This document shows, piece after piece, positions 28,728-51,964 of a DNA stretch of 64,000 nt. Both the position numbers and the translations under genes were made by a program. The stretch is from Candidatus Omnitrophota bacterium (GTDB lineage Bacteria; Omnitrophota; Gorgyraeia; 2-02-FULL-51-18), in assembly GCA_022072175.1 (NCBI GenBank), contig JAJVIE010000003.1:1134483-1198482 (forward strand), in the 5' to 3' direction. How positions within the stretch are numbered: the first letter of the stretch is position 1; each line of letters starts with the position of its first letter. The notes below the pieces were generated by a model that was not told the DNA's origin, made no database searches, and worked only from the letters and a program-made list of their open reading frames with translations.

Positions 28728-29151
28728 AAACGTGACCCAAGTGCGCGCCGCAGCGCGAACACAGGACCTCCGTGCGCTTCATGAAGTGACTGTTGTCCTC
28801 CTCGGTCTTGACCTTGGAGGCATCCGCCGGCTCCCAGAAGCTCGGCCACCCCGAACCGGAATCGTACTTGGCCGAGGACCCGAAGAGCTCCTGTCCGCAA
28901 GCCGCGCAGAGATATTTGCCCTTCTCCTTGTGGTTCCAGTACTTGCCCGTGAACGGCGCCTCGGTGCCCTTGAGCCGGCAGATCTGGTATTGTTCCGGAG
29001 TGAGTTTCTTTTTCCAATCCGCGTCGTTCATACCGGACGGGTCCATCGGCACATCCTCCTTTCGGGATCCTTCGGCCATCGCCGAGACCGTACCGGCGAC
29101 GAGCCCTCCACACACCATGACGACCCACACCAGCGATGATCGGCCGCTCAC
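28654..29151 (-). CDS. msrB: Peptide-methionine (R)-S-oxide reductase MsrB, exported
   Basis: GWPSF and RYCINS motifs, CxxC x2 zinc site, preceded by a signal peptide ([20 protein letters not shown]). Confidence 0.9.
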
Positions 29152-30059
29152 TTCAACACACCTCCTTCACGACGATGACGACGGCACTCCTCCCAGATCC
29201 AGCGGCTGGCGTCCAATCCCGCATAGGGCTCATCGGGATTGCCGTTGGCCAGACCCGCGCGCCCTCCGGGCCAAGCATGGCCCCCGCCGCGCACCGTGCA
29301 GACCACGACTTCAGATCCACCCCGACCTCCGCCGTAACGCTCGATCCGGTGCGATCCCGCCGCGAATTCCTCGGGGATGGCCCGACAGCGATCACGCTCG
29401 ACCCAATAACGTACGGACTCCGCGAACGAAACGTCCGTCCTCGCCGTACCCACGATGCTCTTGCGAGGCCGTCCCCCGGCATAGGGCACATAGTCGTCCG
29501 AGGTCCCGTGCAATAGCACCGCGGTCACGGGTTCCCCCGCGCTTTGCCGACACGCTTCAGGCAAAGACCCCGCCACCGCCGCGAACGCCGCGATCCGGTG
29601 CGGACGCTCTGCCGCGAAGCGATGACACATCATCGCGCCGTTGGAGAACCCCGTCATGTAGATGCGGTCCGGATCGACGCCGTGAACGGCGGCCAGCTGG
29701 GCGCACAGTTCCTCGAGGAACGTGACGTCGTCCGCCTCCGAGCGAAAACGATCAAGCTCTCTTCCGCCGGAGTTCCAGAACAGGAAGCGGTCCGGCGCGG
29801 GACCGGAGCCGTCCGGGAAAACCGCCAGGAACCCTTCTTCGCGCGCCAGACGGTCGAAACCGGACATCCGCACGGCTCCCAGCGCGTTGGCTCCGGCCCC
29901 GTGCAATAGGACGACCGCGGCGGTACGCTCGGCGCGGACGGCCGGACCGGCCGAGAACCAGAGGCGCTCCCGGCCGCCGGACGACAAGACGTGCCGCTCA
30001 AGACCCTCGGGGATCGCGGCGTTCTGGAGCAGCGGCTCATCGGAGGATCTGGGACGCAT
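29148..30059 (-). CDS. Esterase of the PHB-depolymerase/LpqC family
   Basis: GFSNGA nucleophile elbow and HGTSD. ATGA overlap with msrB. Confidence 0.8.
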
Positions 30060-30079: not shown

Positions 30080-30523
30080 TCAGACGGACAGCTCGCGAGG
30101 AGAAGAAACCACGCGCAGATCGTTGACGACCGTATCGATCCCTTCGAGAGAACGGACGCTGCGTTCGAGCGCTTGGGCGTCCTCGGCCCTGAGCACCCGT
30201 CCCGACAGGGTCACCGTGCGGCCCTTGGACACGACCTTGAGACGGGCTACGATGTCGGCGGTCGCTGGGTCCTCCTGCAGGTGACGCAACACTTCCGCGA
30301 CACGGTCACGGGAGTACTCGACGGACGCTTCCGCGGGGATGCGCGCGTCACGGTCCCAGCGGCCGCGCAACGCTTCCTTGCGAAGGTTCTTCTCGACGCG
30401 CTCACGCGGGGTCAGCAGTCGGTCAGCGGCCGGGCCGGCAGCGGTGGTTTCCTTGGCGTCAGCCGATGATCCGGAGACCAGTAACGTTAGAGCGCAGATC
30501 ATGATGGGCAGGCGTACGGGCAT
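30080..30523 (-). CDS. BON-domain protein (OsmY-like)
   Basis: Signal peptide and C-terminal BON domain. Start is Met9 (MPVRLPIM), with AGGAGG 6 nt upstream. A TATAAT sits at 30548-30553, just upstream. Confidence 0.7.
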   Translation of the reverse strand: MPVRLPIMICALTLLVSGSSADAKETTAAGPAADRLLTPRERVEKNLRKEALRGRWDRDARIPAEASVEYSRDRVAEVLRHLQEDPATADIVARLKVVSKGRTVTLSGRVLRAEDAQALERSVRSLEGIDTVVNDLRVVSSPRELSV

Positions 30524-30605
30524 GGCGCACCTCCTTGATGCTCTCATTATAATCCCGGGGGCGTGCGACGAGCAAACGAACGCCGGGCCTCGAGAAGCCC
30601 CGGAG

Positions 30606-31511
30606 CTACTTGCCCGCCGCGTACAAGCGGTGGAACAGTCTCAGATAGGTCCGTCCGAGCGGATGATCGAGCCAGCGCTTACGCCGTGATTCCAGCGACT
30701 CTGGATCGAAAGAGCGGACACGCACCGGCTGGCCGTAAAGACTTTCGTACCCCTTCTTCATTCTCAGCGCCGAGCTCTCGGCGACCAGGCGCGCGGCCGC
30801 CTTGAACGGCCAGGGGTATCGTCCGGCCAGGTCCAGCCGCAGATCGTGACAGGCATCCACGACGCTGCCGGCTTGCTCGCTGAGGTCCTGCTCTCCGGAG
30901 ATCCGGTAATAAGCCATCGGCGCGTCGAGGATCAGGACCTTCCCGGCGTCCATCAGGCGGACCCAGAAGCGCATGTCGGCGTTCGGATACTCTCCGGGAC
31001 GAAAACCGCCCAATCTCCGCGCGAGCTCGACGTTGAAAACGACCCCGGGGAACGGCGAGAGGTTACCCGTCAAGAACCTCCAAACGTTGCACGATCGGAC
31101 GCGGCGGCCCGGCTCGATGTCCAGATGCACGGCGTCCGCGTCCTCTCCCCACGGGCACTCGACAGCGACCGCCGCGATGTCCGGACCGAGGTGCGGCAGC
31201 ACGCCGGCGATGAAGCGCTTGCCCAGCAGATCATCGTCATGAAGGATCGACAGCCATGGGGTCTCACAAAGCTCGATGCAACGGTTCCAGTTGGGGATGA
31301 TCCCGAGGTTTCGAGGATTGCGGTGATAGCTCACTCTCGGGTCCCCCAGCGCCTCCACCGCCCGCTCGAACCGGTCGTGGTCCGAGGCGTCATCGACGAC
31401 CTTGACCGCGCAACGCACCGTCTGCCGGACCGCGCAGCGCAGCGCCTGAGCGAAATACCGGTCCCGGTTGTACGCGGTCAGCGCGATGGTGATCCGGTCG
31501 GTGCTCAGCAC
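30606..31511 (-). CDS. Family-2 glycosyltransferase
   Basis: ITIALTAYNRDRYF..VVDDASDHD..DDD. GTG start with a 7-nt overlap of the sulfotransferase stop. The N-terminal part of the track ORF is a wrong-frame extension. Confidence 0.75.
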   Translation of the reverse strand: MLSTDRITIALTAYNRDRYFAQALRCAVRQTVRCAVKVVDDASDHDRFERAVEALGDPRVSYHRNPRNLGIIPNWNRCIELCETPWLSILHDDDLLGKRFIAGVLPHLGPDIAAVAVECPWGEDADAVHLDIEPGRRVRSCNVWRFLTGNLSPFPGVVFNVELARRLGGFRPGEYPNADMRFWVRLMDAGKVLILDAPMAYYRISGEQDLSEQAGSVVDACHDLRLDLAGRYPWPFKAAARLVAESSALRMKKGYESLYGQPVRVRSFDPESLESRRKRWLDHPLGRTYLRLFHRLYAAGK

Positions 31512-32224
31512 GGCGCGGCGCTCCGGGGCTCGTGTCTGGAGAGCGGGTCGCGGGCCCAACGTCGAGCCTCCTCGGCGTTCGTGAAGACCTCCAGCGGATC
31601 TCCGTCGGAGACGCGTCGCAGGGTCGGGCGGACACACGCGCCCGGACACCCGATGGCGGCGCTCAGCCCCCCGTCGAACACCCTCTGGGCATCGTCCCGG
31701 AGGTCCTCGTAGCGGACCCAGTAGACCGGGTCCGCGGCCGTCTCCGCCTCGAAGCCCGCGTACAGACGCCGGACCTCGACCGTGTAGCGCCGGAAATCCG
31801 CGGACCTGAACTCCGCCCGCCGTCGAAGCGGGACGACGGGCTCGTCGGCGCGGCGGGCCCACGTTCCGGTGAGACCGGCGCGTACGGCCGAGGCGTATTG
31901 GGCCAGGAGGTCCTCGCGGTACAGCGCGATCCAGCCGTTCGGAGAACAGGCCTCGCGCACCCGGGACAACGGCCAGCGGAGGTCTCGCAGCTGCTCGAGG
32001 GGCAGCTTGAACCCCCGCGCTTGGGCCTCGATACCGGACAAACCCTTCCTCAACGCCTCTTGGGCCGCGTCCACGGGCCGTCCGAACCATCGCGGGCGGC
32101 GGTCCGCCAAGGCCGGATTGAGGAGCTCCCCGCGGAAAGCCGCCCCCGGGACGGAGTTGAGACAATCGATAAGGTACCAGCTGCCCGAGCGCCCCGTGCA
32201 GACCACCACGTAAGTGCGGATCAC
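31505..32224 (-). CDS. Stf0-like sulfotransferase
   Basis: N-terminal YVVVCTGRSGSWYL (5'-PSB-like P-loop), about 240 aa. GTG start in a GGAGG-N7-GTGA arrangement overlapping the upstream TGA. Confidence 0.65.
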   Translation of the reverse strand: MIRTYVVVCTGRSGSWYLIDCLNSVPGAAFRGELLNPALADRRPRWFGRPVDAAQEALRKGLSGIEAQARGFKLPLEQLRDLRWPLSRVREACSPNGWIALYREDLLAQYASAVRAGLTGTWARRADEPVVPLRRRAEFRSADFRRYTVEVRRLYAGFEAETAADPVYWVRYEDLRDDAQRVFDGGLSAAIGCPGACVRPTLRRVSDGDPLEVFTNAEEARRWARDPLSRHEPRSAAPC

Positions 32225-34302
32225 AGGAACACCTCCGGATGCAGGGCCCGCAACGTCCTCTGATGCTCCCGATGACGCGCGACCGTCGCGGTGAGCATGG
32301 AGCTCGGGTTGACCCGGTAATAGAACAACGGCTTGGGTACGCGGCGGCCTGAGATGCCCTGTTTGCCCAGATGCAGCCAGAACTCCCAATCCTCATAACC
32401 GGGCACGTCGGCCTTGTAACCCCCGGCATCCTCCCAATCGGCCTTGCGGAACATCGCGCAGGCATCGATATAATTGGCCTCGGCCAGCCTTTCCAGCGAG
32501 TATTCCGGCGTTTCGACACGGACCGTCCTCTTGCCGAAACGGTACAGGTCCGTATACACGAATCCCTGTCCATGCTTTTCGATGTGGTTCAGACAAGTGG
32601 CCGCCATCGCCGGGTCCAGCAGGTTGTCCGCGTCCAACGGTACGATGTACCGGCCCCGCGCCGCCAGGATGCCCGTATTGCGGGCGGCGGCCAGCCCCCT
32701 GTTCGAATCGTGGTACACCACCCTCAACTTGGAGTGACGGCGCGCCAAGTCCCGGAGCAGGCGACGCGATCCGTCCGTCGAACCGTCATCGACGACCACC
32801 ACTTCAATACCCCTCAAGCTCTGGGTCAGCGCGGACATCACGCTCTCTCGCAGATGACGGGCATGGTTGTAGTTCGGGATGACGATGCTGACGTACGGGC
32901 ACCAGGACTTCCGGATGCCGGAGAGCCAGTAGCGCCGCCGCAGATACATGGATAACCATAGGCACAAGGTCCCCAACGCCGTCAGTGAACGCAGCCGCAT
33001 CGGACCGCGGCCCATGAAGAGCAGCCGCTCGAAGTCGCTCAACCGCGCTCCGAGACGCTCCACGAGCGGCAGCAAGGCGTCGTGCGCTCGCCGCAATGGA
33101 GCGGTGATCCGCCAGGAGACGGAACGCTCGAACCGGCCGATCGTCGCGTACGCCGCCGTAAGCTCCGAGCTCTTGCGCTCCAGGCGACGCCGTAAGTGCT
33201 CGACGCGGACGGAGGCCGGGAGCGCCGGCGCGGCGGGGGAGGTGCTGTCGGCCCGTGAGGCGGCGAAAACCTCCGGATGAAAGGAGCGGATCCGCTCGTG
33301 ATAGACACGATGGCGGCGGCGGGCGTTCCAGACCATGGACATCGGACGCACCTGGTACCAGAATCCGTGCATCTCCAAACGCTGGCCGGTGACGCCCATC
33401 TTGCCCAGCTGTATCCAGAATTCCCAGTCCTCGTACCCGTCGATCCCGCGCTTGTAACCGCCCGCCTCGACCCAGTGGTCCCGCCGGTACATGGCGCAGG
33501 TATCGATATAATTGGCCTTCTTGAGCTCCTCGTAATCGTACTGCGGCACGAAGACCTTGGCGGTGCGGCCGTCAGCGCGGAACTGATACAAGTGCGGGTA
33601 CACGAAACGGTCGGGAGCGGCGTCCAGCGCCTTGACGCACTCGCCGATGAGGTCCGGCTCGATGAAATTGTCCGCGTCCAGAGGCAGGATATAGCGGCCT
33701 CGAGCGGCTTCGACGGCGCGGTTGCGTGCCGCCGCCGGTCCTTGCTTGGGACACCCGAAGAACGCCCGGATCCGCGGATCCTTGTGCGTCTGACGCCGCA
33801 CCGCCTCGTCAGAACCATCGCTGGACCCATCGTCCGCGATGATGATCTCGTAGTCCGTATAGGACGACAACAACACCGAATCGACCGCCGCATCCAGGTC
33901 CGCACCGGCGTTGAAGTGCGGGATCACGACGCTGACCGTCGGCGACCAATGGGGCTCCTGTGCGACAGGCCGGCGCGCGGCGGCCGCCTTCTGTAAGCGC
34001 TCGCGAACCCTGCGCGCGTCGATGCCCGGCTGCGGCGTGAACATCGGTCTTCCGGCGAGCGTACGGCCATCGGTGGCGACGGTATCCGCCGCAACACCGC
34101 CGGTCCCGCCGCCCCCGCGGCCCAATCTGTCGCTGAGCCAGCGCAGTGGCGCCGTCCAGCGCCAGGAGCGCGAAGCGGCGAAATCCTCGATGACCCGCTT
34201 GGCCGCGTCCAACTCGATCGACAATGTCCTGTACCGGGTCTCGAGCGCGTCGTCCACAGCGGCCTCGGCCGGGGGTCCGGCAACGGGTATCGAAGGCGTC
34301 AT
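32221..34302 (-). CDS. Tandem-duplicated GT2 glycosyltransferase (two GT2 domains)
   Basis: Two homologous halves, each with VIP.YN...DDGS.DGS...PLDADN...DGYEDWEFW. Each half is preceded by a coiled-coil with an SWR(W/I)TAPLR motif. Confidence 0.85.
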   Translation of the reverse strand: MTPSIPVAGPPAEAAVDDALETRYRTLSIELDAAKRVIEDFAASRSWRWTAPLRWLSDRLGRGGGGTGGVAADTVATDGRTLAGRPMFTPQPGIDARRVRERLQKAAAARRPVAQEPHWSPTVSVVIPHFNAGADLDAAVDSVLLSSYTDYEIIIADDGSSDGSDEAVRRQTHKDPRIRAFFGCPKQGPAAARNRAVEAARGRYILPLDADNFIEPDLIGECVKALDAAPDRFVYPHLYQFRADGRTAKVFVPQYDYEELKKANYIDTCAMYRRDHWVEAGGYKRGIDGYEDWEFWIQLGKMGVTGQRLEMHGFWYQVRPMSMVWNARRRHRVYHERIRSFHPEVFAASRADSTSPAAPALPASVRVEHLRRRLERKSSELTAAYATIGRFERSVSWRITAPLRRAHDALLPLVERLGARLSDFERLLFMGRGPMRLRSLTALGTLCLWLSMYLRRRYWLSGIRKSWCPYVSIVIPNYNHARHLRESVMSALTQSLRGIEVVVVDDGSTDGSRRLLRDLARRHSKLRVVYHDSNRGLAAARNTGILAARGRYIVPLDADNLLDPAMAATCLNHIEKHGQGFVYTDLYRFGKRTVRVETPEYSLERLAEANYIDACAMFRKADWEDAGGYKADVPGYEDWEFWLHLGKQGISGRRVPKPLFYYRVNPSSMLTATVARHREHQRTLRALHPEVFL

Positions 34303-35222
34303 GCGGCCCTCCGCCGGAGCAGGAGGTTGCGCAACACCACATGCGCGGCGAACCTCAACGTCGCTACGGGTCTGACGGCGGCATAGAGCGCCAGCGCGGC
34401 GCTGTCGCGCGCGTCAGCGATGCGTTGGAGCGCGCGCGCAGCTCTCAAGCGCTCGCGCTCGATCCGATCCGACCCCGCGCCGCGCTCGAACGAAGCGCAC
34501 AATCGATCCAGGAAGACCTTGAGCTTGAGGATGCGCCTGAGCGTCATCGGTCCGTACGCGGCGCTGTGCTCATGGATCCGCCACCGCGTCAAACGTCCCG
34601 GCACCCTCCAGAACAGGGTCTCGGCGCTGACGTGCGCCAGGACCCACCAGTCGAGATTGGACCGGTGGCACCCGAGGCGGGGGACCCGCTCGAGCCACCG
34701 CCGTCGGACGATGAAGTGAGTGAACGACGCCACCGGATTACGCTGGAGCAGTTGGGGCCAAAGGCTCAAGGCGCGGCCCGACGGTACGCTCAGCGCGTTG
34801 GCCCACTCGTAGAGGGTCCAGTACACGACGCCTCCGGGCCGCCCGAAAGGCCTGTAGCGCGCGTACACCACGCCCACCTCGGGATGCTCGTCGAGCACGC
34901 GCATCTTGATCTCGAGGTTACGCGCTTCCCAAACATCGTCCGCCTCGATATAAGCGATGACCGGCGCCCGCGCTGCTGCGAGGGCCGTTTCCAGGGCCGT
35001 CTGAAGCCCCCGATTCACCTCATGCCTTATCACGCGCATCCGGACCGGGTCCCTGCGGCGCCAGCGCTCCAGGACCGCGGGAGTTCCGTCGCTCGACCCG
35101 TCGTCGACGACGATGAGCTCCAGATCGCCGCGGGTCTGCGCCAGCACCGAAGCGATCGCTCCGTCCAGATAACGCTCATAGTTGTACGTCGCAAGGAGGA
35201 CGCTGACCGCGGGGCCGCTCAC
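34299..35222 (-). CDS. Family-2 glycosyltransferase
   Basis: VSVLLATYNYERYL..VVDDGSSDGT..EADD. 4-nt overlaps on both sides. Confidence 0.85.
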   Translation of the reverse strand: MSGPAVSVLLATYNYERYLDGAIASVLAQTRGDLELIVVDDGSSDGTPAVLERWRRRDPVRMRVIRHEVNRGLQTALETALAAARAPVIAYIEADDVWEARNLEIKMRVLDEHPEVGVVYARYRPFGRPGGVVYWTLYEWANALSVPSGRALSLWPQLLQRNPVASFTHFIVRRRWLERVPRLGCHRSNLDWWVLAHVSAETLFWRVPGRLTRWRIHEHSAAYGPMTLRRILKLKVFLDRLCASFERGAGSDRIERERLRAARALQRIADARDSAALALYAAVRPVATLRFAAHVVLRNLLLRRRAA

Positions 35223-36250
35223 GCCGCGTTCCCCGGACGGCCGCCGCCGATCCGCCAGACGATCTCCCAGAGCGCTCCCGAGAACATCCCGAGCGTCATC
35301 GCGCAGGCATCAGGCACGAGCCAAAAGGCCGCCGACACCGCAAAACCCGCGCCGCGGCGCGTCGTCAGACGCGCCAGGAAGGCCCCCCAACAGACCGTCA
35401 ACATCGTCACGGCGAAGACCAACCATGCCAGCGCCGGGCCCGGACCCCACAACGCGCCCCAGACCGCGGCCGGCACGCTCAAGGTCGCCGCGAGCTGAAG
35501 GACCGAAGCGTGCGAAAAGGCCCCCCGGGCGGCGCCGCGGGCGCGGTAGCGCAGACACATCCTCGCGAAGAGGAACGGGATCACATAATCGTTGCGCAGC
35601 AATCCGAGCGGGCCGTAAGGCTTGAGGTGTTTGAGGAGCAGGCGGTGCTCCAACCGCACCTTGCGGCCGCGCGCGGCCAGACGCAACCCGAGCTCCGAGT
35701 CGGCCACTAACGATCCGAAAGGCCCCCGGATGGGCTCGAAGACGTCCAGCTCCGAGGCACGCACCGCGAACGCCGAACCGTAGAGGAAGTCGACCTCCTC
35801 CGGGCGGCTCCTAAATACATGTTCCATGTACTCGTTCTTGAAATCCCCCCACCAGGTGCCGGTCCGGTGACCGCCCTCGAGCAACCCGGTCACCGCGTCT
35901 GCCCGTCCGTCCAACACCGGAGCGCACAAGAGCGCCAGGCCGCCCGGCGGCAGGATCACGTCGGCATCCACGAACACCAGCACCGGACACTCCGTCGCGG
36001 CGAGGACGCCGGCATAGCGCGCCTCCATGGGTCCGGTGGCCGGTCCTTGGCGTGACACCACTTCCCAACCCAGGCGGCGCGCGATGGACGCGGTGCCGTC
36101 GGAAGACCCGTCGTCGACGACGATCCGCCGAAGAGGCCGCTCCATCTGGGAGTCGATGGACCCCAGACAGGCTTCGAGCGTGCGCTCGGCGTTGCGCGCG
36201 GGGACGATCACCGCGCAGGGCTGGACCGGAGCGCCGGCCGGATCAGGCAT
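35219..36250 (-). CDS. Family-2 glycosyltransferase with C-terminal transmembrane helices
   Basis: CAVIVPARNAE..VVDDGSSDGT..VDAD, then about 100 aa of hydrophobic helices. Confidence 0.8.
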   Translation of the reverse strand: MPDPAGAPVQPCAVIVPARNAERTLEACLGSIDSQMERPLRRIVVDDGSSDGTASIARRLGWEVVSRQGPATGPMEARYAGVLAATECPVLVFVDADVILPPGGLALLCAPVLDGRADAVTGLLEGGHRTGTWWGDFKNEYMEHVFRSRPEEVDFLYGSAFAVRASELDVFEPIRGPFGSLVADSELGLRLAARGRKVRLEHRLLLKHLKPYGPLGLLRNDYVIPFLFARMCLRYRARGAARGAFSHASVLQLAATLSVPAAVWGALWGPGPALAWLVFAVTMLTVCWGAFLARLTTRRGAGFAVSAAFWLVPDACAMTLGMFSGALWEIVWRIGGGRPGNAA

Positions 36251-37634
36251 ACACGACCTCCTCGAGCGCCGGTGAAGGACGCTCCTTGCGGAGATAGGCG
36301 CGCGCCGCTCCCAGGCCGCTCAAGAGGGCCTGATCGCTGTTGTCGTAACGGAACAACCCCGCCCGTCCGGCCAGATGAAGGTTCGGGATGCTCCGCAGAT
36401 AATCCAGCACCGTGTTCAAGGGCTCGCGATAGCCGACGCGGTACACCGGATAGGCGTTGGCCACGCGCACCGCGAAGCCTTCGCGGAGCGCCCGGTGCGG
36501 CGCCAGACCCATCCGATCGAGCTCGACGGCGCTGCGCCGGACCAGCTCGCTCTCCTCCATCGACCAGATCGGGTCCTGCGCGGAGACGAAGTACTCCACT
36601 CCGAGCGTGGTCAATCGCTCGGACGGCACCATGTCGGCGCTCCAGTTGCGGTAGTTCTGCACCCGTCCGAACGGCACCTCTGGGGCGTGCACATAGATCC
36701 AATTGTCGGGAAAGCTCTCGCCGTGCTCGTAGATCAGGTTGACGGTGATGAAGTGCCTGAACGACAGCCGCGCGCAGGCCTCGAGCACCGACGGCGGGGG
36801 CGGCGGATGGATCTTGCCGACGAGCGCCGTGATCGGGATGCTGGAGAAAACCTCCGAGCAGTCGCGCCTCTCGACGCCGCCCCGCGCATCCCCGAGGAGC
36901 ACCGCCGCGACCCGCTCCCCCTCTCTGAGAACGGACAATACCGGCCGGCCGTACTCGAGGAGCGCGCCGTTGCGGCGCGCGCGCTCGGCATAGCGTTCAC
37001 AGAACTGCCCCGGGCCCCTGCGTGGATAGTAGAACTCCTCGCTCAAGGACCTTTCGCCGGCGGCCGGCGGCCAGAGCGCCTTGCGCACGGCTCGCCCGAG
37101 CGAGAGACCGCGCACGCGCTCCTGGGCCCAATCGGACGACAATTGCGAGCACGGGATGCCCCAGACCTTCTCGGTGTAGGTCTTGAAGAACGTTTCGAAG
37201 AGCCTGCGGCCGAACCTCGAGCTCATCCAGCTGTCGAAATCCTCCCCCATCGCCGCGGGCCCTAGACGGGAGGCGGCGTAACTGGCCAGACAGCGGGCCG
37301 CCTCGACCGGGCCGAGCCCCGCCAGAGCGTTGAGCGGTCTCAGCGGGTAGTCGAAGAAGCGGCCCTGGTAGAAGATACGAGAGCGCCTGCGGACCCGCAG
37401 GAGGTCCTCGCCCATCACCTCCGACCAGATCGCGTTGACCTCCGGACTGTCCGAGAGGAAGCGATGGCCGCCGATATCAAAATAACAGTCCTTGTACCGC
37501 ACGGTCCGACACAGACCGCCGGGCTGCAGGTCCCTCTCGATCAGGGACGGAGCCGCTCCGGCGGAGGCCAGGGCATCGGCGCAAGCCAATCCCGCCGGAC
37601 CGGCTCCCAGCACCAACAGCGAGGGCCGGCTCAT
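36243..37634 (-). CDS. UDP-galactopyranose-mutase-like FAD-dependent oxidoreductase
   Basis: Rossmann motif LVLGAGPAGLACA. LFETFFKTYTEKVWG and AGRAGLFRYDNSDQAL resemble Glf motifs. Start is Met65, an ATGA overlap with the upstream stop. Confidence 0.7.
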   Translation of the reverse strand: MSRPSLLVLGAGPAGLACADALASAGAAPSLIERDLQPGGLCRTVRYKDCYFDIGGHRFLSDSPEVNAIWSEVMGEDLLRVRRRSRIFYQGRFFDYPLRPLNALAGLGPVEAARCLASYAASRLGPAAMGEDFDSWMSSRFGRRLFETFFKTYTEKVWGIPCSQLSSDWAQERVRGLSLGRAVRKALWPPAAGERSLSEEFYYPRRGPGQFCERYAERARRNGALLEYGRPVLSVLREGERVAAVLLGDARGGVERRDCSEVFSSIPITALVGKIHPPPPPSVLEACARLSFRHFITVNLIYEHGESFPDNWIYVHAPEVPFGRVQNYRNWSADMVPSERLTTLGVEYFVSAQDPIWSMEESELVRRSAVELDRMGLAPHRALREGFAVRVANAYPVYRVGYREPLNTVLDYLRSIPNLHLAGRAGLFRYDNSDQALLSGLGAARAYLRKERPSPALEEVVYA

Positions 37635-39487
37635 GGGCGGGTCTCCGTCGTGCGGGCGGGTACCGCCGTCCGGCCCGAGCCGAGCATCGACGCTTGCCGC
37701 TCGGCCCGCGCGGCGCCGGCGAGATCCCCGCGGCGACGCAGTGTTTCGGCCAGCAGGCGATACAGCGGGACGCCGGAGGCGCCCGAGCGGATCGCGCCGC
37801 GCAGTTGTTCTTCGGCCTTCCGCCAATCCCCCGAGGCGGCGGCGATGCGGGCGCGGAGGACCGGCAGTTCCGGCAGGCGCGGATGCAGACGCGACAAGTG
37901 TTCGAGCGCCTCGGCGGCCTCGGCGATCCGGCCGAGGGCCAGGCGCATGGAGATCAGATTGAGATGCGTGAGCGCATCACGCGACCCCTCCTCGACGGCC
38001 AGCCTCAGGCGCGCCTCGGCGCGGACCAGGTTGCCGGATGCGTGATCGATCATCGCGCGCAGACGGTGCGCCGCCGGATGTCCGGGCGCGGCCGACTCGA
38101 ACTTCCCGGCCAGATGCACCACTTGAGCGCGGCGGCCGCGCTCGATGCCGATCCGCATCAGGGCCTCATAAGCGTCCGGATCGGCCGGATAGTTGTGGAT
38201 CAGCCGCCGATAGATCCGTATCGCCTCTTCGGTCCGGCCGGTCAACAGATGATCGTCCGCCAGGAGCCACAGCGCTCTTTTGTCCTCAGGATGGTACCGG
38301 AGGGCGGCTTTCGCGTGAGAGGTCCCGTCCTTCCAATCCGGCAGTGCTCTCATCGTCAACGGCAGGCCGAGGATCGCGGAGGCCAGGACGATCGGAGCGG
38401 CCCAGCGCCTCAGCGGCCCCGGGGCCAAAGCCAAACCTGCGGGCACGGCCACGAGCGGCAGGTACAAATGGCGGGTCCCGATCGGAGCCCCGATGAGCGC
38501 GGCCGGCAGGACCAGCAGGACGAACCAGGCCGCCCAGTATCCCCACGCGCGGCGCCGCAGACAACCGATGACCGCAAGGCTCGTAACGAGCGCGGCGAGG
38601 GCCGCGTGCAGAAGGATCCATTCCGGCCGTCCGTACAAGGCCGACTCTTCGAACTCGTAGATGCGGGGTTCCTGAGGCCACAGGGCCAGACGCGCGTAGT
38701 AGCCCAGCATCGACACGGCGCGACAGCCGGACTCCATCGCTCCATCGGATGCCCAACGCTCGAGCGAGACGGGGAATCTCGCCAGAGTGAGCGCTCCGAT
38801 GAGGGTCGCGGGCACCACCAGGAGCGCGAACGTCATGCGGACGTTCCGGGAGGCGGTCCGGTCCCCGATCCCGCAGTGGGTCAGCAGCGCCGACAGCGGT
38901 ACCAGGACCACGGCCGTCACCTTGGATAAGATCGCGGCGGCCAGGCAGAGCGGACCGGCCCATCGTCCCCGGCCGCGGACCATCAGATTGAACCCCGCCA
39001 ACGCGAATGCCGCGCACAGCAGGCTCTTGCGTTCCGAGATCCAGGCCACGGGCTCGACCTGCGCGGGATGCCAGGCGAAGAACAGCGACCCGGCCAGAGC
39101 GGTCGGCGCCGAAACGCCCAGGGCGCGCAGGAGCAGACAGACCAGGGCGGCGTTCAGACAATGCAGCAGCAGGTTGGTCCTGTGGTGGCCGCTGACAGGG
39201 TCGGAGGCCCACAGCAGACGGTCCAGATCGAGGCTGGCCAGTGTCAGCGGCACCTGCAAACCCAGCGGAGAGCTGAACCACGCCGCGACGGCGTCCAATG
39301 GAGCGGTGCCCGGAGGCGTACGGAGAACGACGTAGCGGGCGTCGTCCACACGCACGGTGCCATATCCGGCGACCGGGGCGAAGACGACTGCTGCGGCCAG
39401 CGCCGCGGCGCAAGCCGTCAGCGCCGATGCGTATTTTCCGAGGGGATCGGCTCCGATCACGGCATCAAGTATACGCCCGCCGGACAC
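37631..39487 (-). CDS. TMTC-like GT-C membrane glycosyltransferase with C-terminal TPR domain (paralog 1)
   Basis: TM region with the ...HHRTNLLLHCLNAALV... and HPAQVEPVAWISERK motifs shared with paralogs 2 and 3. C-terminal TPR repeats. Start is ambiguous: GTG at 39487, or ATG at 39547 overlapping the wzm ATG. Confidence 0.65.
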   Translation of the reverse strand: MSGGRILDAVIGADPLGKYASALTACAAALAAAVVFAPVAGYGTVRVDDARYVVLRTPPGTAPLDAVAAWFSSPLGLQVPLTLASLDLDRLLWASDPVSGHHRTNLLLHCLNAALVCLLLRALGVSAPTALAGSLFFAWHPAQVEPVAWISERKSLLCAAFALAGFNLMVRGRGRWAGPLCLAAAILSKVTAVVLVPLSALLTHCGIGDRTASRNVRMTFALLVVPATLIGALTLARFPVSLERWASDGAMESGCRAVSMLGYYARLALWPQEPRIYEFEESALYGRPEWILLHAALAALVTSLAVIGCLRRRAWGYWAAWFVLLVLPAALIGAPIGTRHLYLPLVAVPAGLALAPGPLRRWAAPIVLASAILGLPLTMRALPDWKDGTSHAKAALRYHPEDKRALWLLADDHLLTGRTEEAIRIYRRLIHNYPADPDAYEALMRIGIERGRRAQVVHLAGKFESAAPGHPAAHRLRAMIDHASGNLVRAEARLRLAVEEGSRDALTHLNLISMRLALGRIAEAAEALEHLSRLHPRLPELPVLRARIAAASGDWRKAEEQLRGAIRSGASGVPLYRLLAETLRRRGDLAGAARAERQASMLGSGRTAVPARTTETRP

Positions 39488-39533
39488 CCCCGCAAAAGCG
39501 GAAAAACCCGCCGGGGACGGGCCCGCTTTCAGG

Positions 39534-39539
39534 TATAAT
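39534..39539 (+). promoter_or_regulatory. TATAAT -10 box 6 nt upstream of the wzm ATG (possible leaderless transcript)
   Basis: aggTATAATcggaccATG. Preceded by inverted repeat AAAGCGG-N21-CCGCTTT (39495-39529). Confidence 0.35.
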
Positions 39540-39545
39540 CGGACC

Positions 39546-40322
39546 ATGTCCAACCCTCTTTTCCGAGGTGACGCGGCGCTTTTCCGGGCGCTCTGCCGCA
39601 ATCAGATCATCTCCAGCGACTACCGCAGCGGCCTGGGCGTGCTGTGGAGCTTTCTGGGACCTCTTCTCAAGGCGACCGTCTTCTATCTGATCTTCCATGA
39701 GATCTGGGGACGGTCGGTGACACATTTCGGCCTCAAGATCCTGGTCGGCGTCGTTGCCCTGCAGTTCTTCCATTCGATCGTGCAGTACTCCCAACAGGGG
39801 ATCCGACAGGGGCAGGGCACCGCCCTGCACACGACAGTGCCGTTCGAGGTGCTGCTCTTCCCCACCTACGCCGTGCCCACGCTCAAGCTGATGACGGAAC
39901 TGACGATCTGCTGGCTGGCAGCGGCGTTCTTCGCGGGCGCGGGTATCATGGTCTGGGTCCGGCTGTTGGCCCTCGGTCTTCTTCTGTTGGCTTTTTCGAT
40001 CGGCACCGGCCTCTTGATCGCGTCCCTGCAAACACTGGCCCGGGACATCTCCGAGATCTGGCACCACCTATCGCCTCTCCTGCTGTTCCTGACGCCCGTC
40101 TTCTATTCCCTGGACCGCCTGCCCGAGAACGTCGCGGGGATCGTTCGCGCGCTCAATCCCCTGTGTCCGTTCGTTCTGGCCTTCCAATCGTCGTTGACCG
40201 CCTCCCCGGTGCCCGGGGCCGGCGGGGCCTGGATCGCGAGCATCGCCTGGTCCGCGGGCGCTCTGGCGGCGGGCTACACCGTCTTCCGCGCTCTGGAAAA
40301 AGAGATCGTGGAGAACCTGTGA
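39546..40322 (+). CDS. wzm: ABC-2 type polysaccharide exporter permease
   Basis: 258 aa, 6 TM helices, ABC-2/Wzm/TagG-like. Confidence 0.85.
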   Translation: MSNPLFRGDAALFRALCRNQIISSDYRSGLGVLWSFLGPLLKATVFYLIFHEIWGRSVTHFGLKILVGVVALQFFHSIVQYSQQGIRQGQGTALHTTVPFEVLLFPTYAVPTLKLMTELTICWLAAAFFAGAGIMVWVRLLALGLLLLAFSIGTGLLIASLQTLARDISEIWHHLSPLLLFLTPVFYSLDRLPENVAGIVRALNPLCPFVLAFQSSLTASPVPGAGGAWIASIAWSAGALAAGYTVFRALEKEIVENL

Positions 40323-41101
40323 GCGGCGGAACGGTCCTGAGGCTTGCCGGCGTCTCCAAGAAGTTCCGCGTCTACCGGTCCGAGCGGACGCTCTTCCGCT
40401 ATCTGATGCGCACCCTGAGCGGGGAGCCGATCCACGACACGCTCTGGGCCTTGCGCGGCGTGGACCTGGAACTGCGGCGGGGGGACAAGGTCGCCGTGCT
40501 CGGCCGCAACGGAGCCGGCAAGAGCACCCTTCTGCGTCTGGCGGCGGGTATCTACGGTCCGAGCTCCGGCACGATCGAGCGCTCGGAGCCGGGGCTGGCG
40601 CTGTTCCGCTACGGCGTGGGCATGCAAGCCGACCTGCCGGTCATCGAGAACATCCTGACGACCGGCGCCTTCTACCGGATCCCTCTTGCGCGGCTCCGGG
40701 AGCGCTCCGAGGCGATCCTCCGCTTCTCGGGGCTCGAGCATCTGCGCTATCATCCCGTCAAACGCCTCTCCTCAGGCCAGGTCCAGCGGCTCAACTTCTC
40801 GATCTTCCTGGAAGCGGGTTTTTCCTTCCTGGTCTTCGACGAGAGCACCAGCATGGCGGACATCGAGTTCAGGGCCCGCGCGGCCGTTGCCCTGCGGGAA
40901 CTGCTCCGTTCGGACAAGACGGTCCTCTTGGCGACGCACCAGCTGGATTTCGCGGCGCAGAACTGCGACCGAGCGATCTGGCTCGAGGACGGGCGGGTGG
41001 TCCAGAGCGGCGGCGTGCGGGAAGTGTCCGAGGCTTACGAAGCGTTCTGCGAGAAGCTCGCGCGAGGTCCGGCGGTCAATGCAGGGAAGGCCGCCATTTG
41101 A
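40319..41101 (+). CDS. wzt: ABC polysaccharide exporter ATP-binding protein
   Basis: GTG start overlapping the wzm TGA. Walker A GRNGAGKST, signature LSSGQ, Walker B LVFDE. No C-terminal carbohydrate-binding extension. Confidence 0.85.
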   Translation: MSGGTVLRLAGVSKKFRVYRSERTLFRYLMRTLSGEPIHDTLWALRGVDLELRRGDKVAVLGRNGAGKSTLLRLAAGIYGPSSGTIERSEPGLALFRYGVGMQADLPVIENILTTGAFYRIPLARLRERSEAILRFSGLEHLRYHPVKRLSSGQVQRLNFSIFLEAGFSFLVFDESTSMADIEFRARAAVALRELLRSDKTVLLATHQLDFAAQNCDRAIWLEDGRVVQSGGVREVSEAYEAFCEKLARGPAVNAGKAAI

Positions 41102-41666
41102 GCGAGCGTATGATCGCCTCCTCCTCGCGGACCAGGCGCTCCAGCCGGGCGTCCACCGTACGTTCATCGAAGTATTCGAGCGCCAGGTTCACGAACAGAT
41201 TGCCGTGCCGCGCCTCGGCGACGCAGAACTCCTTGTAGAACGCCTTGAGCTCGGGGTCCTCGAGGGCCCGATAGACGATCTGGAACCGCTCGGCCCCGCG
41301 CGCTTCGACGATGGAGGCGACCAAGAGACGGTCCAGGAACCGCTCCTCGCGGCCGCTCCGGCAGTGGGCCATCAGTCGGCTGACGTAGGGGTCCTTGATG
41401 AAATTGGGTTTGAGCGGCAAACCGCGTTTCTCAAGGATGCGGTGCACCTGCCTGAAATGCGCCAGCTCCTCCAGCGCCAGGTCGATCATCGGGCCGATGA
41501 TCTTCGTCCGGTCCGGACACTTGACCACGAAACCCAGCGCCATGGCCGAGGCCTTGAGCTCGCAGTCGGCGTGGTCGGCCAGGAACTCGTCGAAATGATC
41601 CAGGATCACACGCACCCAGGACGGGTCGGTCTTGCAGGTCAGCTGGACGGTCTTGGTCGGCATCAT
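41076..41666 (-). CDS. miaE: tRNA-(ms2io6A37) hydroxylase
   Basis: Ferritin-like di-iron helices with E..H motifs (DHADCELKA..., EARHGNLF). Start is MMPTKTV, with the exact start +/-3 nt. Confidence 0.75.
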   Translation of the reverse strand: MMPTKTVQLTCKTDPSWVRVILDHFDEFLADHADCELKASAMALGFVVKCPDRTKIIGPMIDLALEELAHFRQVHRILEKRGLPLKPNFIKDPYVSRLMAHCRSGREERFLDRLLVASIVEARGAERFQIVYRALEDPELKAFYKEFCVAEARHGNLFVNLALEYFDERTVDARLERLVREEEAIIRSLKWRPSLH

Positions 41667-41677
41667 CTCCCCCGGGT

Positions 41678-43246
41678 TCAGCGTATTGTATCGGACCCCG
41701 GCCTTCGCGGCCAAGAACCCTCCGGGCCCGGAGCGATCTCCCGCGAACGACCGCCGTCGAGATAGAACACCCGAAGGGGCCTGTCCCCCCGGCGTTCGGG
41801 CCGGAAGAGCAGTTTTCGGGGACCCCGCCCGATCACCGTCCCGAGCTTGGGGAGACCCTGAGCCGGCGGCCATTCGATCAAACGCGATGTCCCCGTCTCA
41901 GGCTCGAGCCGGAGAACCCCTTCGTCCAGCTGGGTGGCCCGAAAATCCCCGGATCGCCGGTGAGCGTAGAGCATCACGCCCTCGACCGCTCCGGAACCCC
42001 GGCCCGCGGCAAGAAGCGCGGCGGACGTCAGTCCGTTGCGTAGAACATATCGGCCCCGATAGCTGTCGGGCACATTGAGCACCACCACATCGGACGAGCG
42101 CGAGGCGGCTGCCACCGGACCCAGGACCGCGTCACGCAAACGCGCTGCCGCCGCCCAATCCGCTTGCGCCGCCCACGTTCGCGTCAACGCGTATCCGATC
42201 AGAGCGGCCGAGACCGCGATCCGGAGCGTCCGGCCCCGGACGGCGTCATGGATCGCCCCCGAGACGCACAGCGCCGCGAACACGGTGGACCAGTAGAGCA
42301 GGCGCTCGTTCTCAGGCGAGCCCGGAGCCGCCCCAAAATTGACGGTCGGCAGGAACGCGACCGTCATGAGGACCGCGCAGGCGGAAGGGATCGTACGCCA
42401 CCACCGGACGACGAGGAGCCACACGCACAACCCCGCCCCGATCAGGATCGGCCGGGCGGCCGCTCCCCATGCGGCGACATCCCCGGTTCCGGACAGACAT
42501 CTGGCGGGCAGGGACGCGACGTTGAAGAACAACCGCCCCGGATCGAAGTTCAGATGAAAACGCTGTCCGTATCCGCCGATCGGATCGCCGAGATAAGCTC
42601 CCCTGGCCAGGATATAAACAACGGTCAGGACAAGGAACGGCCAGGGCAGGGCCCGGCCGAGCGGCCGCTGTCCGCGGCCGCGTGCCAACACATCGTGCGC
42701 GGCCAACACCAGAGGGAAAGCGACCGCCGATTCCTTGGTGAACAAGAAAAGGACGAAGATCGTCGCGCAGACGGTTTCGTAGCGCCGGCGTCCGGTCTCC
42801 CGGTAGACCACGTACGCCCAGTATCCCGCCGTACCCCACAACGCGGCCAACACATCACAGCGCCCGGTGATCCAGCTGACCGCCTCCGAGTGGACCGGCA
42901 GGACCACGAAGAGCGACGCCGAGAGCAGCGCCGCTCCCCTGGAGCCGGGATACAACCGCCGCGCCAGACCGTAGAGCACGGCGGCCACGATCAGGTGGAG
43001 AACGAGGTTGGTGAGATGATGTCCCGGAGCCCACGGACCGCACAGGCGGATGTCCGCGAGCCACGTCGAGGCGGTCAAGGGGCGCACGAACATCGGCCAC
43101 CAGAGCGTCCACACGCTCTCGTCCCGGATCAAAAAGTGGCGGAGGATCAGGTAGTCGTCGGAGAGGAACCCGAAGCTCAGGGACGATCCATAAGCGACCA
43201 GACCGAGAACGACGATCAGGAGCGCCTCTCCGATCCGGCGGAACAT
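41678..43246 (-). CDS. TMTC-like GT-C membrane glycosyltransferase, paralog 2 (no TPR; distinct soluble C-terminal domain)
   Basis: DDYLILRHF...GHHLTNLVLHLIVAAVLY and HSEAVSWI motifs. Start is Met89 of the track ORF, a TGATG junction with the putA stop. Confidence 0.65.
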   Translation of the reverse strand: MFRRIGEALLIVVLGLVAYGSSLSFGFLSDDYLILRHFLIRDESVWTLWWPMFVRPLTASTWLADIRLCGPWAPGHHLTNLVLHLIVAAVLYGLARRLYPGSRGAALLSASLFVVLPVHSEAVSWITGRCDVLAALWGTAGYWAYVVYRETGRRRYETVCATIFVLFLFTKESAVAFPLVLAAHDVLARGRGQRPLGRALPWPFLVLTVVYILARGAYLGDPIGGYGQRFHLNFDPGRLFFNVASLPARCLSGTGDVAAWGAAARPILIGAGLCVWLLVVRWWRTIPSACAVLMTVAFLPTVNFGAAPGSPENERLLYWSTVFAALCVSGAIHDAVRGRTLRIAVSAALIGYALTRTWAAQADWAAAARLRDAVLGPVAAASRSSDVVVLNVPDSYRGRYVLRNGLTSAALLAAGRGSGAVEGVMLYAHRRSGDFRATQLDEGVLRLEPETGTSRLIEWPPAQGLPKLGTVIGRGPRKLLFRPERRGDRPLRVFYLDGGRSREIAPGPEGSWPRRPGSDTIR

Positions 43247-51870: not shown

Positions 51871-51964
51871 GCAGTGATTATAAGCGATGCGGTCGTGCCC
51901 TCACAAGGCCGATGGGCTCAAGGCCCTTGCGCCCGGAGGCGGGGCGGTTTAGACTGCACTCCAG

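Follow-up and report, generated by a model that had tools for sequence, protein, structure and literature searches.

A 64,000-nucleotide stretch of contig JAJVIE010000003.1 from an uncultured member of the Omnitrophota (hereafter the window; G+C content ~66%) carries a nine-gene locus that, on balance, we read as an assembly and export unit for a sulfated glycan, judging from its sequence and from predicted structures. Seven genes, G1 to G7, occupy the minus strand at 30606-39547, and a divergent wzm/wzt pair lies on the plus strand at 39546-41101. The reading turns on a putative sulfotransferase (G2) and on a flavoenzyme with the fold of UDP-galactopyranose mutase (UGM; G6), which sit among glycosyltransferases of family 2 (GT2) and next to an ATP-binding cassette (ABC) transporter. 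The features of the locus are as follows.

G1, 30606-31511, minus strand: single-domain GT2, 301 aa, last gene of the operon
G2, 31505-32224, minus strand: predicted sugar O-sulfotransferase of the type that uses 3'-phosphoadenosine 5'-phosphosulfate (PAPS), Stf0/NodH-like, 239 aa
G3, 32221-34302, minus strand: internally duplicated two-domain GT2, 693 aa
G4, 34299-35222, minus strand: soluble single-domain GT2, 307 aa
G5, 35219-36250, minus strand: GT2 with a C-terminal membrane segment, 343 aa
G6, 36243-37634, minus strand: UGM-fold flavoenzyme of the PRK07208 family, 463 aa, predicted nucleotide-sugar pyranose/furanose mutase
G7, 37631-39547, minus strand: polytopic membrane domain with C-terminal tetratricopeptide repeats (TPR), glycosyltransferase-C (GT-C)-like, first gene of the operon, 638 aa by the longest start
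Probable divergent promoter region, 39461-39545, no strand: between G7 and wzm, promoter function presumed
wzm, 39546-40322, plus strand: ABC-2 type permease, 258 aa
wzt, 40319-41101, plus strand: ABC transporter ATPase, 260 aa

The minus-strand genes are contiguous and overlap by 4-8 nt at all of their junctions, in agreement with the gene arrangement and coordinates given by a first-pass annotation made from the sequence alone. G7/G6 and G4/G3 are joined by a 4-nt ATGA and G5/G4 and G3/G2 by a 4-nt GTGA; the G6/G5 overlap is 8 nt, and the GTG start of G1 overlaps the stop of G2 by 7 nt. The GGAGG-N7-GTGA coupled start that had been claimed for the sulfotransferase gene is present exactly as described, and wzm and wzt are likewise joined by a 4-nt GTGA. 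All genes named by that annotation are in place at their coordinates, but its inventory left out G7, a gene that falls within the interval and heads the operon. A scan for promoters and terminators inside the operon returned a site count not above that of shuffled sequence. Genes were called from a listing of open reading frames (ORFs), inspection of start codons and third-position GC. The latter lay at 0.78-0.85 in those frames that cleared a composition filter; G1 and wzt failed to clear it, and we accept them as genes because of their Pfam matches and conserved synteny.

The case for sulfation lies in G2, the product of which is identical to NCBI MOGMAGMI_01535. Its best sequence match in the PDB is Stam10 (9VKI), with an E-value of 9.5e-5 for G2 alone, a weak match made up of two aligned stretches of 10.9 and 12.7 bits, and of 9.7e-15 over nearly the full length for the family profile. 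Stam10 is an 84% identical homologue of Sam10, the saccharomicin A fucose 2-O-sulfotransferase, and binds the 5'-phosphate through R13, S16 and S17 (PMC13291958). In the same study, alanine mutants of R108 and S117 were inactive, those of R13, S16 and S17 were inactive or strongly reduced, and E34 touched the acceptor oxygen in a docking model (PMC13291958). G2 has the sulfotransferase alpha/beta fold and the elements of a PAPS site, namely a 5'-phosphosulfate-binding (PSB) loop R12-S13-G14-S15, a 3'-phosphate-binding (PB) motif R103...S112 and a glutamate base, E33. R12, S15, E33, R103 and S112 align with Stam10 R13, S16, E34, R108 and S117. The two proteins share the RSGS loop, the Glu that comes after beta-2 and, for the 3'-phosphate, the R...S motif, at positions essential in Stam10. 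The two differ in that Stam10 Ser17 is Trp16 in G2, the substrate-binding His155 of Stam10 has no clear equivalent, and the substrate of Stam10 is a secondary-metabolite oligosaccharide whereas G2 is located in a GT2/ABC-2 operon. A review describes the same logic: the PSB loop of Stf0/NodH-type enzymes has an Arg, the PB helix contributes a Ser, and the base is either His or Glu (PMC11625862). The R-x-G PSB motif of the rhizobial NodH, a Sulfotransfer_3 protein, is also found in G2.

Close homologues of G2 are few. A word-indexed search turned up three further clusters and no more (43-47% identity). When a four-sequence profile was run against 1.84 billion representatives, 896 relatives were found at E<=1e-3, and only two fell below 1e-30, one of them the cluster of G2 itself; the clade is thus tiny and divergent. 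We aligned G2, the three close homologues and 46 remote relatives. In these 50 sequences only R12, G14, E33, R103, S112 and E173 are invariant; five of the six align with the PSB-loop glycine, R13, E34, R108 and S117 of Stam10, and E173 has no assigned counterpart. Sulfotransfer_3 is matched by 45 of the 50 (E<=0.001), Stf0 by 17 and Sulfotransfer_1 by 8. Members of the wider family are fused to GT2, YfhO, NTP_transf_5, GNAT or tandem sulfotransferase domains, which ties the family loosely to glycan work. In the GTDB species genomes, the clade profile found a single locus, in a Pseudomonadota metagenome-assembled genome (MAG; locus L006), at 29% identity. That relative stands alone amid dnaX, recR and ppk. 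Read in the frame of the upstream 215-aa ORF, the stretch at 9875-10672 contains an in-frame stop, which may mark a pseudogene or result from a frameshift or an error of assembly. The best remote relative, P0125, sits on a 2-kb contig.

As to which sulfotransferase family G2 belongs to, G2 alone scores 19.3 bits against Sulfotransfer_3 (PF13469; gathering score 27). It does match Stf0 (PF09037) at 24.9 bits against a gathering score of 22, over residues 83-130 only, and it scores 16.4 bits against a cutoff of 400 for the Stf0 equivalog NF047724. The genes for sulfolipid that belong with the mycobacterial Stf0 (trehalose 2-sulfotransferase, PDB 1TEX) are absent around G2. G2 is no closer to Stf0 than to the NodH/Stam10 type, which qualifies the earlier label "Stf0-like"; we use "Stf0/NodH-like" as a description without family membership. 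The small P-loop sulfotransferase with a PSB motif that had been proposed is borne out by the intact PAPS site, the Glu base and the Stam10 profile match, and the product of 31505-32224 did not fall into a non-sulfotransferase P-loop family. By alignment and model, then, G2 is a predicted sulfotransferase-fold enzyme with intact PAPS-binding and catalytic residues. Hydropathy showed no transmembrane (TM) segment in G2, so it is probably cytoplasmic, where PAPS is found.

G6 belongs to a large and poorly described family. It scores 510.7 bits over residues 3-448 against NCBIfam NF005548 (PRK07208, PRK07208-4, "hypothetical protein"), for which the cutoff is 389; 6,628 of 8,000 candidates that we scored fell in this family at E<=1e-10. 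In Pfam, G6 matched only Amino_oxidase and NAD_binding_8, and its homologues are publicly named "NAD(P)/FAD-dependent oxidoreductase" or "protoporphyrinogen oxidase". The bacterial Glf equivalog TIGR00031 was matched at 30.3 bits against a cutoff of 303.75, through the N-terminal 167 residues only, and G6 had no match to PF03275 (GLF) at E<=0.01. These two results rule out that G6 is a classical Glf; the mechanism is still likely to be shared. A literature search found no paper connecting UGM with Omnitrophica.

Comparisons with known structures point to the eukaryotic UGMs. Searched alone against the PDB, G6 matched these best (E 1.5e-18). A profile of 41 G6 sequences matched the enzymes of Aspergillus fumigatus (AfUGM) and Trypanosoma cruzi (TcUGM) at an E-value of 1e-36, over the full length for the latter, compared with 2.5e-19 or weaker (weakest ~1e-7, N-terminal 167 residues only) for bacterial UGMs and ~1e-7 or weaker for protoporphyrinogen oxidases (PPOX). 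The AlphaFold2 (AF2) model of G6 has a pLDDT of 88.8. With this model, the top 34 Foldseek matches were eukaryotic UGMs, at TM-scores of 0.78-0.84 (TcUGM and AfUGM 0.81-0.84; TcUGM 4dsg 0.83), followed by PPOX structures at 0.76-0.78. The model has the three-domain fold of UGM, and the sequence has the flavin adenine dinucleotide (FAD) site G10-x-G12-x-x-G15. Residue equivalences were taken from the profile-to-AfUGM alignment, AfUGM native numbering being the PDB chain index plus one, and are as follows.

AfUGM G61-G62-H63 (His loop): G6 G55-G56-H57
AfUGM Y104-P105: G6 Y96-P97
AfUGM R182: G6 R173
AfUGM W315 and Y317: G6 W312 and Y314
AfUGM R327: G6 R324
AfUGM Y419: G6 Y395
AfUGM R447: G6 R424
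AfUGM Y453: G6 Y430
AfUGM N457: G6 N432

Each of these G6 residues is invariant in the 41 family members and occurs in the protein encoded in the window. In AfUGM the critical arginines are R182 and R327, H63 lies on a flavin-adjacent loop, and W315 is conserved in eukaryotic but not in prokaryotic UGMs (PMC3322874). The active-site Arg and Tyr residues and the FAD site, loss of which would have spoken against a UGM-like enzyme, are thus conserved. The description of G6 as a UGM-like FAD enzyme holds for its fold and its Arg/Tyr/His/FAD site, but curated models do not place it in the Glf/UGM family. The eukaryotic enzymes (A. fumigatus 3UKA/3UTE, T. cruzi 4DSG) share a full-length fold match and the catalytic set with G6 at 18-21% identity, and the YNFKVWA motif of AfUGM reads YTEKVWG in G6; unlike them, the G6 family is prokaryotic and operon-encoded. 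Taking alignment and model together, we consider that G6 is most likely a pyranose/furanose mutase acting on a nucleotide sugar.

Pfam found all five GT2 domains that had been reported, one each in G1, G4 and G5 and two in G3. G1 scores 49.1 bits against Glycos_transf_2, and a 301-aa G1 gene also follows the sulfotransferase gene in related loci L001 and L003. G4 scores 107.5 bits and has no TM segment. G5 scores 67 bits, also exceeds the gathering score of Glyco_transf_21 (34 bits), and has a hydrophobic segment at approximately residues 266-296, so that G1, G4 and G5 are the three single-domain GT2s, one with a C-terminal membrane part, of the first description. The best PDB matches of G5 alone are the soluble GpgS enzymes; the G5-family profile reaches the membrane GT2 6yv7 over positions 6-293 and, within the catalytic domain, also DPMS, ArnC and GtrB. 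G3 is clearly duplicated internally: its two Glycos_transf_2 stretches score 213 bits, and its halves are 37% identical over 355 columns (E 2e-71). The best PDB match of G3 is the chondroitin synthase K4CP (2z86/2z87; E 1e-31, two stretches). Like K4CP of E. coli K4 (2Z86) and heparosan synthase, G3 has two complete GT2 catalytic domains in one chain; unlike in those enzymes, its halves are recent duplicates, each behind a coiled-coil and SWRxTAPLR. Each half opens with this predicted coiled-coil, which ends in a near-identical motif (SRSWRWTAPLR and SVSWRITAPLR) ahead of the GT2 domain. The element may be for oligomerisation or membrane association.

wzm and wzt encode an ABC-2 permease together with its cognate ATPase, as in Wzm/Wzt-type exporters. 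wzm has TM segments and scores 25.8 bits against ABC2_membrane, just under the gathering score of 26.9; its best NCBIfam match is a galactan export permease (36 bits vs 380). wzt scores 65.4 bits against ABC_tran, 136.5 against the NCBIfam galactan Wzt/RfbE model (cutoff 400), 112 against TagH (cutoff 320) and 75-78 against NodI. Neither protein reached the cutoffs of the named exporter equivalogs (galactan Wzm/Wzt, TagGH). The galactan Wzt alignment takes up residues 43-242 of the 260 in wzt and leaves no space for an extra carbohydrate-binding domain, in keeping with the earlier account of a divergent wzm/wzt whose nucleotide-binding domain lacks such a module.

G7 has ~9-10 hydrophobic (TM) segments followed by TPR matches in Pfam at residues 410-615. 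The membrane part had no Pfam match even at E<=10, and a PDB sequence search with G7 matched the TPR repeats only. Remote homologues are TM-plus-TPR proteins, some of them with PMT_2, PMT or DUF1736 or named "protein O-mannosyl-transferase". The features in favour of a GT-C protein are thus the hydrophobic segments, a VDDARYV motif after TM1, and remote homologues that are weakly PMT-like. The motif is kept in a 47%-identical, 610-aa orthologue upstream of the G6 orthologue in locus L005. In public databases G7 is named "Beta-barrel assembly-enhancing protease"; with ~9-10 TM segments and no peptidase domain reported, this name is probably a mis-transfer driven by the TPR repeats.

The start of G7 bears on how the two transcription units are controlled. 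Candidate starts are an ATG at 39547 and GTG codons at 39487 and 39460. A TATAAT lies at 39533-39538, 6 nt ahead of the wzm ATG, a TATACT lies on the minus strand 7 nt ahead of GTG 39460, and the neighbourhood of 39461-39545 is AT-richer. In L005 the homologous G7 and wzm genes are 126 bp apart. Because of the 610-aa length of the orthologue, the position of VDDARYV, the AT-richer stretch and the TATAAT/TATACT pair, the sequence suggests that G7 begins at 39460-39487 and not as far upstream as 39547, and that a divergent promoter region occupies 39461-39545. The placement of the two hexamers further suggests a divergent pair of leaderless or near-leaderless transcripts.

Gene order is kept at 43-76% protein identity on contigs from other samples, so the arrangement is not due to chance. 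Locus L003 reads (partial ORF)-G5-G4-G3-G2-G1-BON-esterase-MsrB-...-OsmC, L004 reads G4-G3-G2-G1, and L005 has wzt-wzm divergent from G7-G6-G5. We also inspected six diverse loci with G6 homologues at 45-51% identity (L007-L012). In all six, a G5-like GT2 of 326-355 aa, 27-44% identical to G5, adjoins the G6-like gene or lies a single ORF (105-109 aa) away. In three of them (L008, L009 and L012) a membrane protein of 395-513 aa, with a weak PMT_2 match or no Pfam match, lies directly upstream with overlapping stop and start, as G7 does, and L009 and L012 also have a divergent ABC-2 permease/ATPase pair. A sulfotransferase was found in none of the six. Long flavoenzyme variants (~600 aa) are the ones followed by the 105-109 aa ORF, which has no Pfam match, and source labels among family members include Verrucomicrobiae, Gemmatimonadota and Bathyarchaeia MAGs. 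The recurring part is therefore a GT-C-like protein, a UGM-like enzyme and a membrane GT2, sometimes with ABC-2, across phyla. Since no sulfotransferase occurs in the six loci, the sulfation arm is a lineage-specific add-on: in a small Omnitrophota lineage, the recurring set has been extended by the sulfotransferase gene along with G4, G3 and G1.

In a pathway built from these parts, G6 would convert a nucleotide-activated pyranose to a furanose by the flavin-N5 covalent mechanism of UGM. G4, G3 and G1, perhaps with G5, would then build a lipid-linked glycan at the cytoplasmic face, with G3 as a two-active-site polymerase or an alternating transferase similar to chondroitin synthase. Before export, G2 would carry out PAPS-dependent O-sulfation of a sugar hydroxyl of the glycan, its presumed substrate; in the site read from sequence and predicted model, the general base would be Glu33, with the 5'-phosphosulfate bound by Arg12 and Ser15 and the 3'-phosphate by Arg103 and Ser112. 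Wzm/Wzt would move the finished chain across the inner membrane, and G7, on the outer face, would add a lipid-phosphate-linked sugar or pass the glycan to its final acceptor. The coupling of G7 to the mutase gene, together with the recurring set, suggests that one step of the pathway is extracytoplasmic, in place of a purely cytoplasmic assembly such as that of D-galactan.

Several observations weigh against this pathway. G6 falls short of the Glf equivalog and lacks a PF03275 match, and a literature search on PRK07208 found no paper. The uracil-binding Gln107 of AfUGM corresponds to Arg99 in G6, in a column that is variable in the family, and Tyr334 corresponds to Trp331; with both residues replaced, the nucleotide or the substrate may differ. 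G2 alone remains under the Sulfotransfer_3 gathering score and its PF09037 match spans just 48 residues, wzm remains just under the ABC2_membrane gathering score (25.8 vs 26.9), and the role given to G7 is based on weak remote homology. Among the ORFs annotated, which were most of the large ones in the window, outside ~56.4-61.7 kb, we found no genes for PAPS synthesis (sat/cysDN, cysC; ATP sulfurylase, APS kinase) or nucleotide-sugar supply, nor any for a ligase or an initiating transferase of the WecA/WbaP type. The initiator and the ligase may be encoded elsewhere, as wecA is in enterobacteria. Because PAPS-synthesis, initiating phosphoglycosyltransferase and nucleotide-sugar genes are missing from the window, a "sulfated furanose-containing polymer" stays something that we infer from the gene content.

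We considered whether G6 might instead be a redox flavoenzyme of the amine-oxidase/PPOX superfamily, an oxidase or desaturase acting on a sugar or lipid, in which case there would be neither mutase nor furanose. The Pfam matches (Amino_oxidase and NAD_binding_8 only), the public names of its homologues, the PPOX structures close behind in Foldseek (TM-scores 0.76-0.78) and the unconserved Gln107 all fit such an enzyme. We regard it as unlikely, however: the UGM set (GGH His-loop, both catalytic Arg, Trp/Tyr pair, two Tyr and Asn) does not vary within the family, sequence profiles place UGMs ahead of every oxidase (1e-36 vs 1e-7 or weaker for PPOX), and constant pairing with a glycosyltransferase suits a sugar-nucleotide enzyme. 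A somewhat better prospect, though still a minority one in our estimate, is that the pathway is split, with the G7/G6/G5 unit making a polyprenyl-phosphate-linked furanose that decorates or anchors a chain built by the soluble GT2s and sulfotransferase. The mutase would feed a furanose nucleotide sugar to G5 or act on the product of G5, and G7 would use the donor outside the cytoplasm. The G6-like/G5-like pairing in six of six loci, the upstream membrane protein in L008, L009 and L012, the divergent ABC-2 pair in L009 and L012, the lack of a sulfotransferase in all six, the PMT/PMT_2/DUF1736 signatures in G7 homologues and the reach of the G5-family profile to DPMS, ArnC, GtrB and 6yv7 argue for this division. 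The pattern of a GT2, a lipid-phosphate sugar and a GT-C enzyme is also established, as in GtrB/GtrC, ArnC/ArnT and DPMS/PMT. Against it, the best single-sequence PDB matches of G5 are soluble GpgS enzymes and not polyprenyl-phosphate transferases, no flippase was identified even though ORFs of 105-109 aa follow the long G6 variants, and the GT-C assignment of G7 is weak; we also know of no polyprenyl-phosphate galactofuranose pathway in which a UGM-like enzyme takes part.

The product and its destination could differ as well. It is quite unlikely, in our view, that the locus makes a small sulfated glycolipid or oligosaccharide for ABC-2 export rather than a long polymer, on the model of the Nod factors (NodC, NodH, NodIJ) or of mycobacterial sulfolipid (Stf0). 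The nearest characterised relatives of G2 do use small substrates (trehalose for Stf0, lipo-chitooligosaccharide for NodH, an oligosaccharide antibiotic for Stam10), wzt matches NodI at 75-78 bits, G5 passes Glyco_transf_21, a family of lipid glycosyltransferases, and no chain-length regulator or terminator domain was seen. However, a set of five GT2 domains, two of them in a duplicated, coiled-coil-bearing enzyme that resembles K4CP, is more in character with the assembly of a polymer, the galactan Wzt (136 bits) and TagH (112 bits) models outscore NodI, and the match of G5 to NodC is negligible (19.5 bits vs 550). Just as improbable, we think, is a glycan destined for protein, with G7 as a TMTC/PMT-like protein O-glycosyltransferase or an oligosaccharyltransferase, as in ABC-dependent surface-layer glycan pathways. 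A polytopic membrane part with TPR is the TMTC-type architecture, some G7 homologues are so named and carry DUF1736 or PMT, and more GT-C-like/TPR membrane proteins are encoded at 41678-43510, 49816-51900 and 51953-53305; yet the locus has no gene for a candidate acceptor protein, the homology is weak, and TPR repeats are also common in exopolysaccharide secretion proteins (as the matches to PgaA and BcsC illustrate).

The sulfated-glycan assembly and export unit that we favour can be set beside known systems. Glycans with galactofuranose (Galf) that depend on ABC transporters include the Klebsiella O1/O2 D-galactan I (wzm, wzt, glf, wbbMNO), the mycobacterial galactan (glf, glfT1, glfT2, Wzm/Wzt), the Kingella kingae galactan (PMC12269835) and the Salmonella T1 antigen (PMC11294581). 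These systems and the locus have in common a mutase-type flavoenzyme, multi- or bifunctional GT2s and a Wzm/Wzt with an ATPase that lacks a carbohydrate-binding module, and the best NCBIfam matches of wzm and wzt are galactan exporter subunits. The locus differs in having a PRK07208 mutase-like enzyme nearer to eukaryotic UGMs than to Glf, transporter scores far below cutoffs, a sulfotransferase and a GT-C/TPR protein, and in that no known Galf-transferase family and no initiating enzyme were identified in it. The likeness to Galf-containing D-galactan pathways drawn by the first-pass annotation survives for the mutase-type enzyme, the bifunctional GT2 and Wzm/Wzt; it does not extend to Glf itself, the cutoff for which was not reached, and may not extend to the site of assembly, given that G7 points to an extracytoplasmic step.

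Rhizobia offer another comparison. The capsule of Mesorhizobium loti is exported by an ABC transporter, and LpsS, the sulfotransferase of Sinorhizobium meliloti lipopolysaccharide, follows the same concept as the one proposed here. That concept, cytoplasmic PAPS-dependent sulfation of a surface polysaccharide, is also represented by the fucosyl sulfotransferase KpsS of the M. loti capsule (PMC11625862), which we liken to the locus by concept and not by sequence; a mutase and a GT-C partner are absent from the KpsS and LpsS systems. By curated cutoffs, the locus appears to be outside all of the defining protein families of the systems to which we have likened it. We know of no report in which a PRK07208 UGM-like enzyme is combined with a divergent Stf0/NodH-like sulfotransferase and with a GT-C/TPR partner.

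The surroundings of the locus are mixed. Housekeeping genes in the window include those for phosphoenolpyruvate carboxylase, purK/E, aconitase, PutA, MiaE and Tex. Downstream of G1, after a gap of 58 bp, come genes for a BON-domain protein (30080-30547), an esterase (29148-30059) and MsrB (28654-29151), and in L001 and L003 they keep their place alongside the operon. This synteny probably reflects close genome relatedness and not a common function, and co-transcription of the BON gene with the operon is possible. On the other side, 41678-43510 on the minus strand encodes a polytopic membrane protein of 610 aa with a FLSDDY motif after TM1; it has no Pfam match even at E<=10 and shares a similar stretch of 69 residues with G7 (E 6e-8). 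Its gene runs straight into that of MiaE, a tRNA hydroxylase (41076-41873, minus strand). Because the Pfam MiaE match begins at ORF residue 71, the MiaE start is probably at ~41669, which makes the two genes nearly contiguous. Farther away are a 694-aa membrane protein with C-terminal TPR repeats (49816-51900, minus strand) and a PMT/PMT_2/Glyco_transf_22-like GT-C (51953-53305, plus strand), and the genome seems rich in GT-C and TPR proteins. Literature matching "Omnitroph" and "sulfotransferase" appears, by title and abstract, to be unrelated.

Sulfated glycans are uncommon in bacteria, having been recorded in six genera according to a 2024 review (PMC11625862). Among the carbohydrate sulfotransferases of bacteria, the substrate is known for only a few. 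To find such an enzyme in the operon for an ABC-exported glycan, in an uncultured phylum of nanobacteria, would extend sulfation to a new lineage and the sulfotransferases by a new clade. Tentatively, the GT-C-like protein, the PRK07208 enzyme and the membrane GT2 of ~340 aa, with or without ABC-2, may form a widespread and uncharacterised bacterial and archaeal module, in which a prokaryotic sister group of the eukaryotic UGMs would supply furanose, possibly linked to lipid phosphate, for extracytoplasmic glycosylation; in this Omnitrophota lineage, three soluble GT2s and a sulfotransferase would have been added to give a sulfated furanose-containing surface glycan. PRK07208 is a very large family that keeps the complete UGM catalytic set and yet is annotated "oxidoreductase" or "protoporphyrinogen oxidase". 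If its members are mutases, thousands of annotations would be wrong, furanose sugars would be far commoner in environmental prokaryotes than has been assumed, and the origin of the eukaryotic UGMs, which are drug targets, could be traced.

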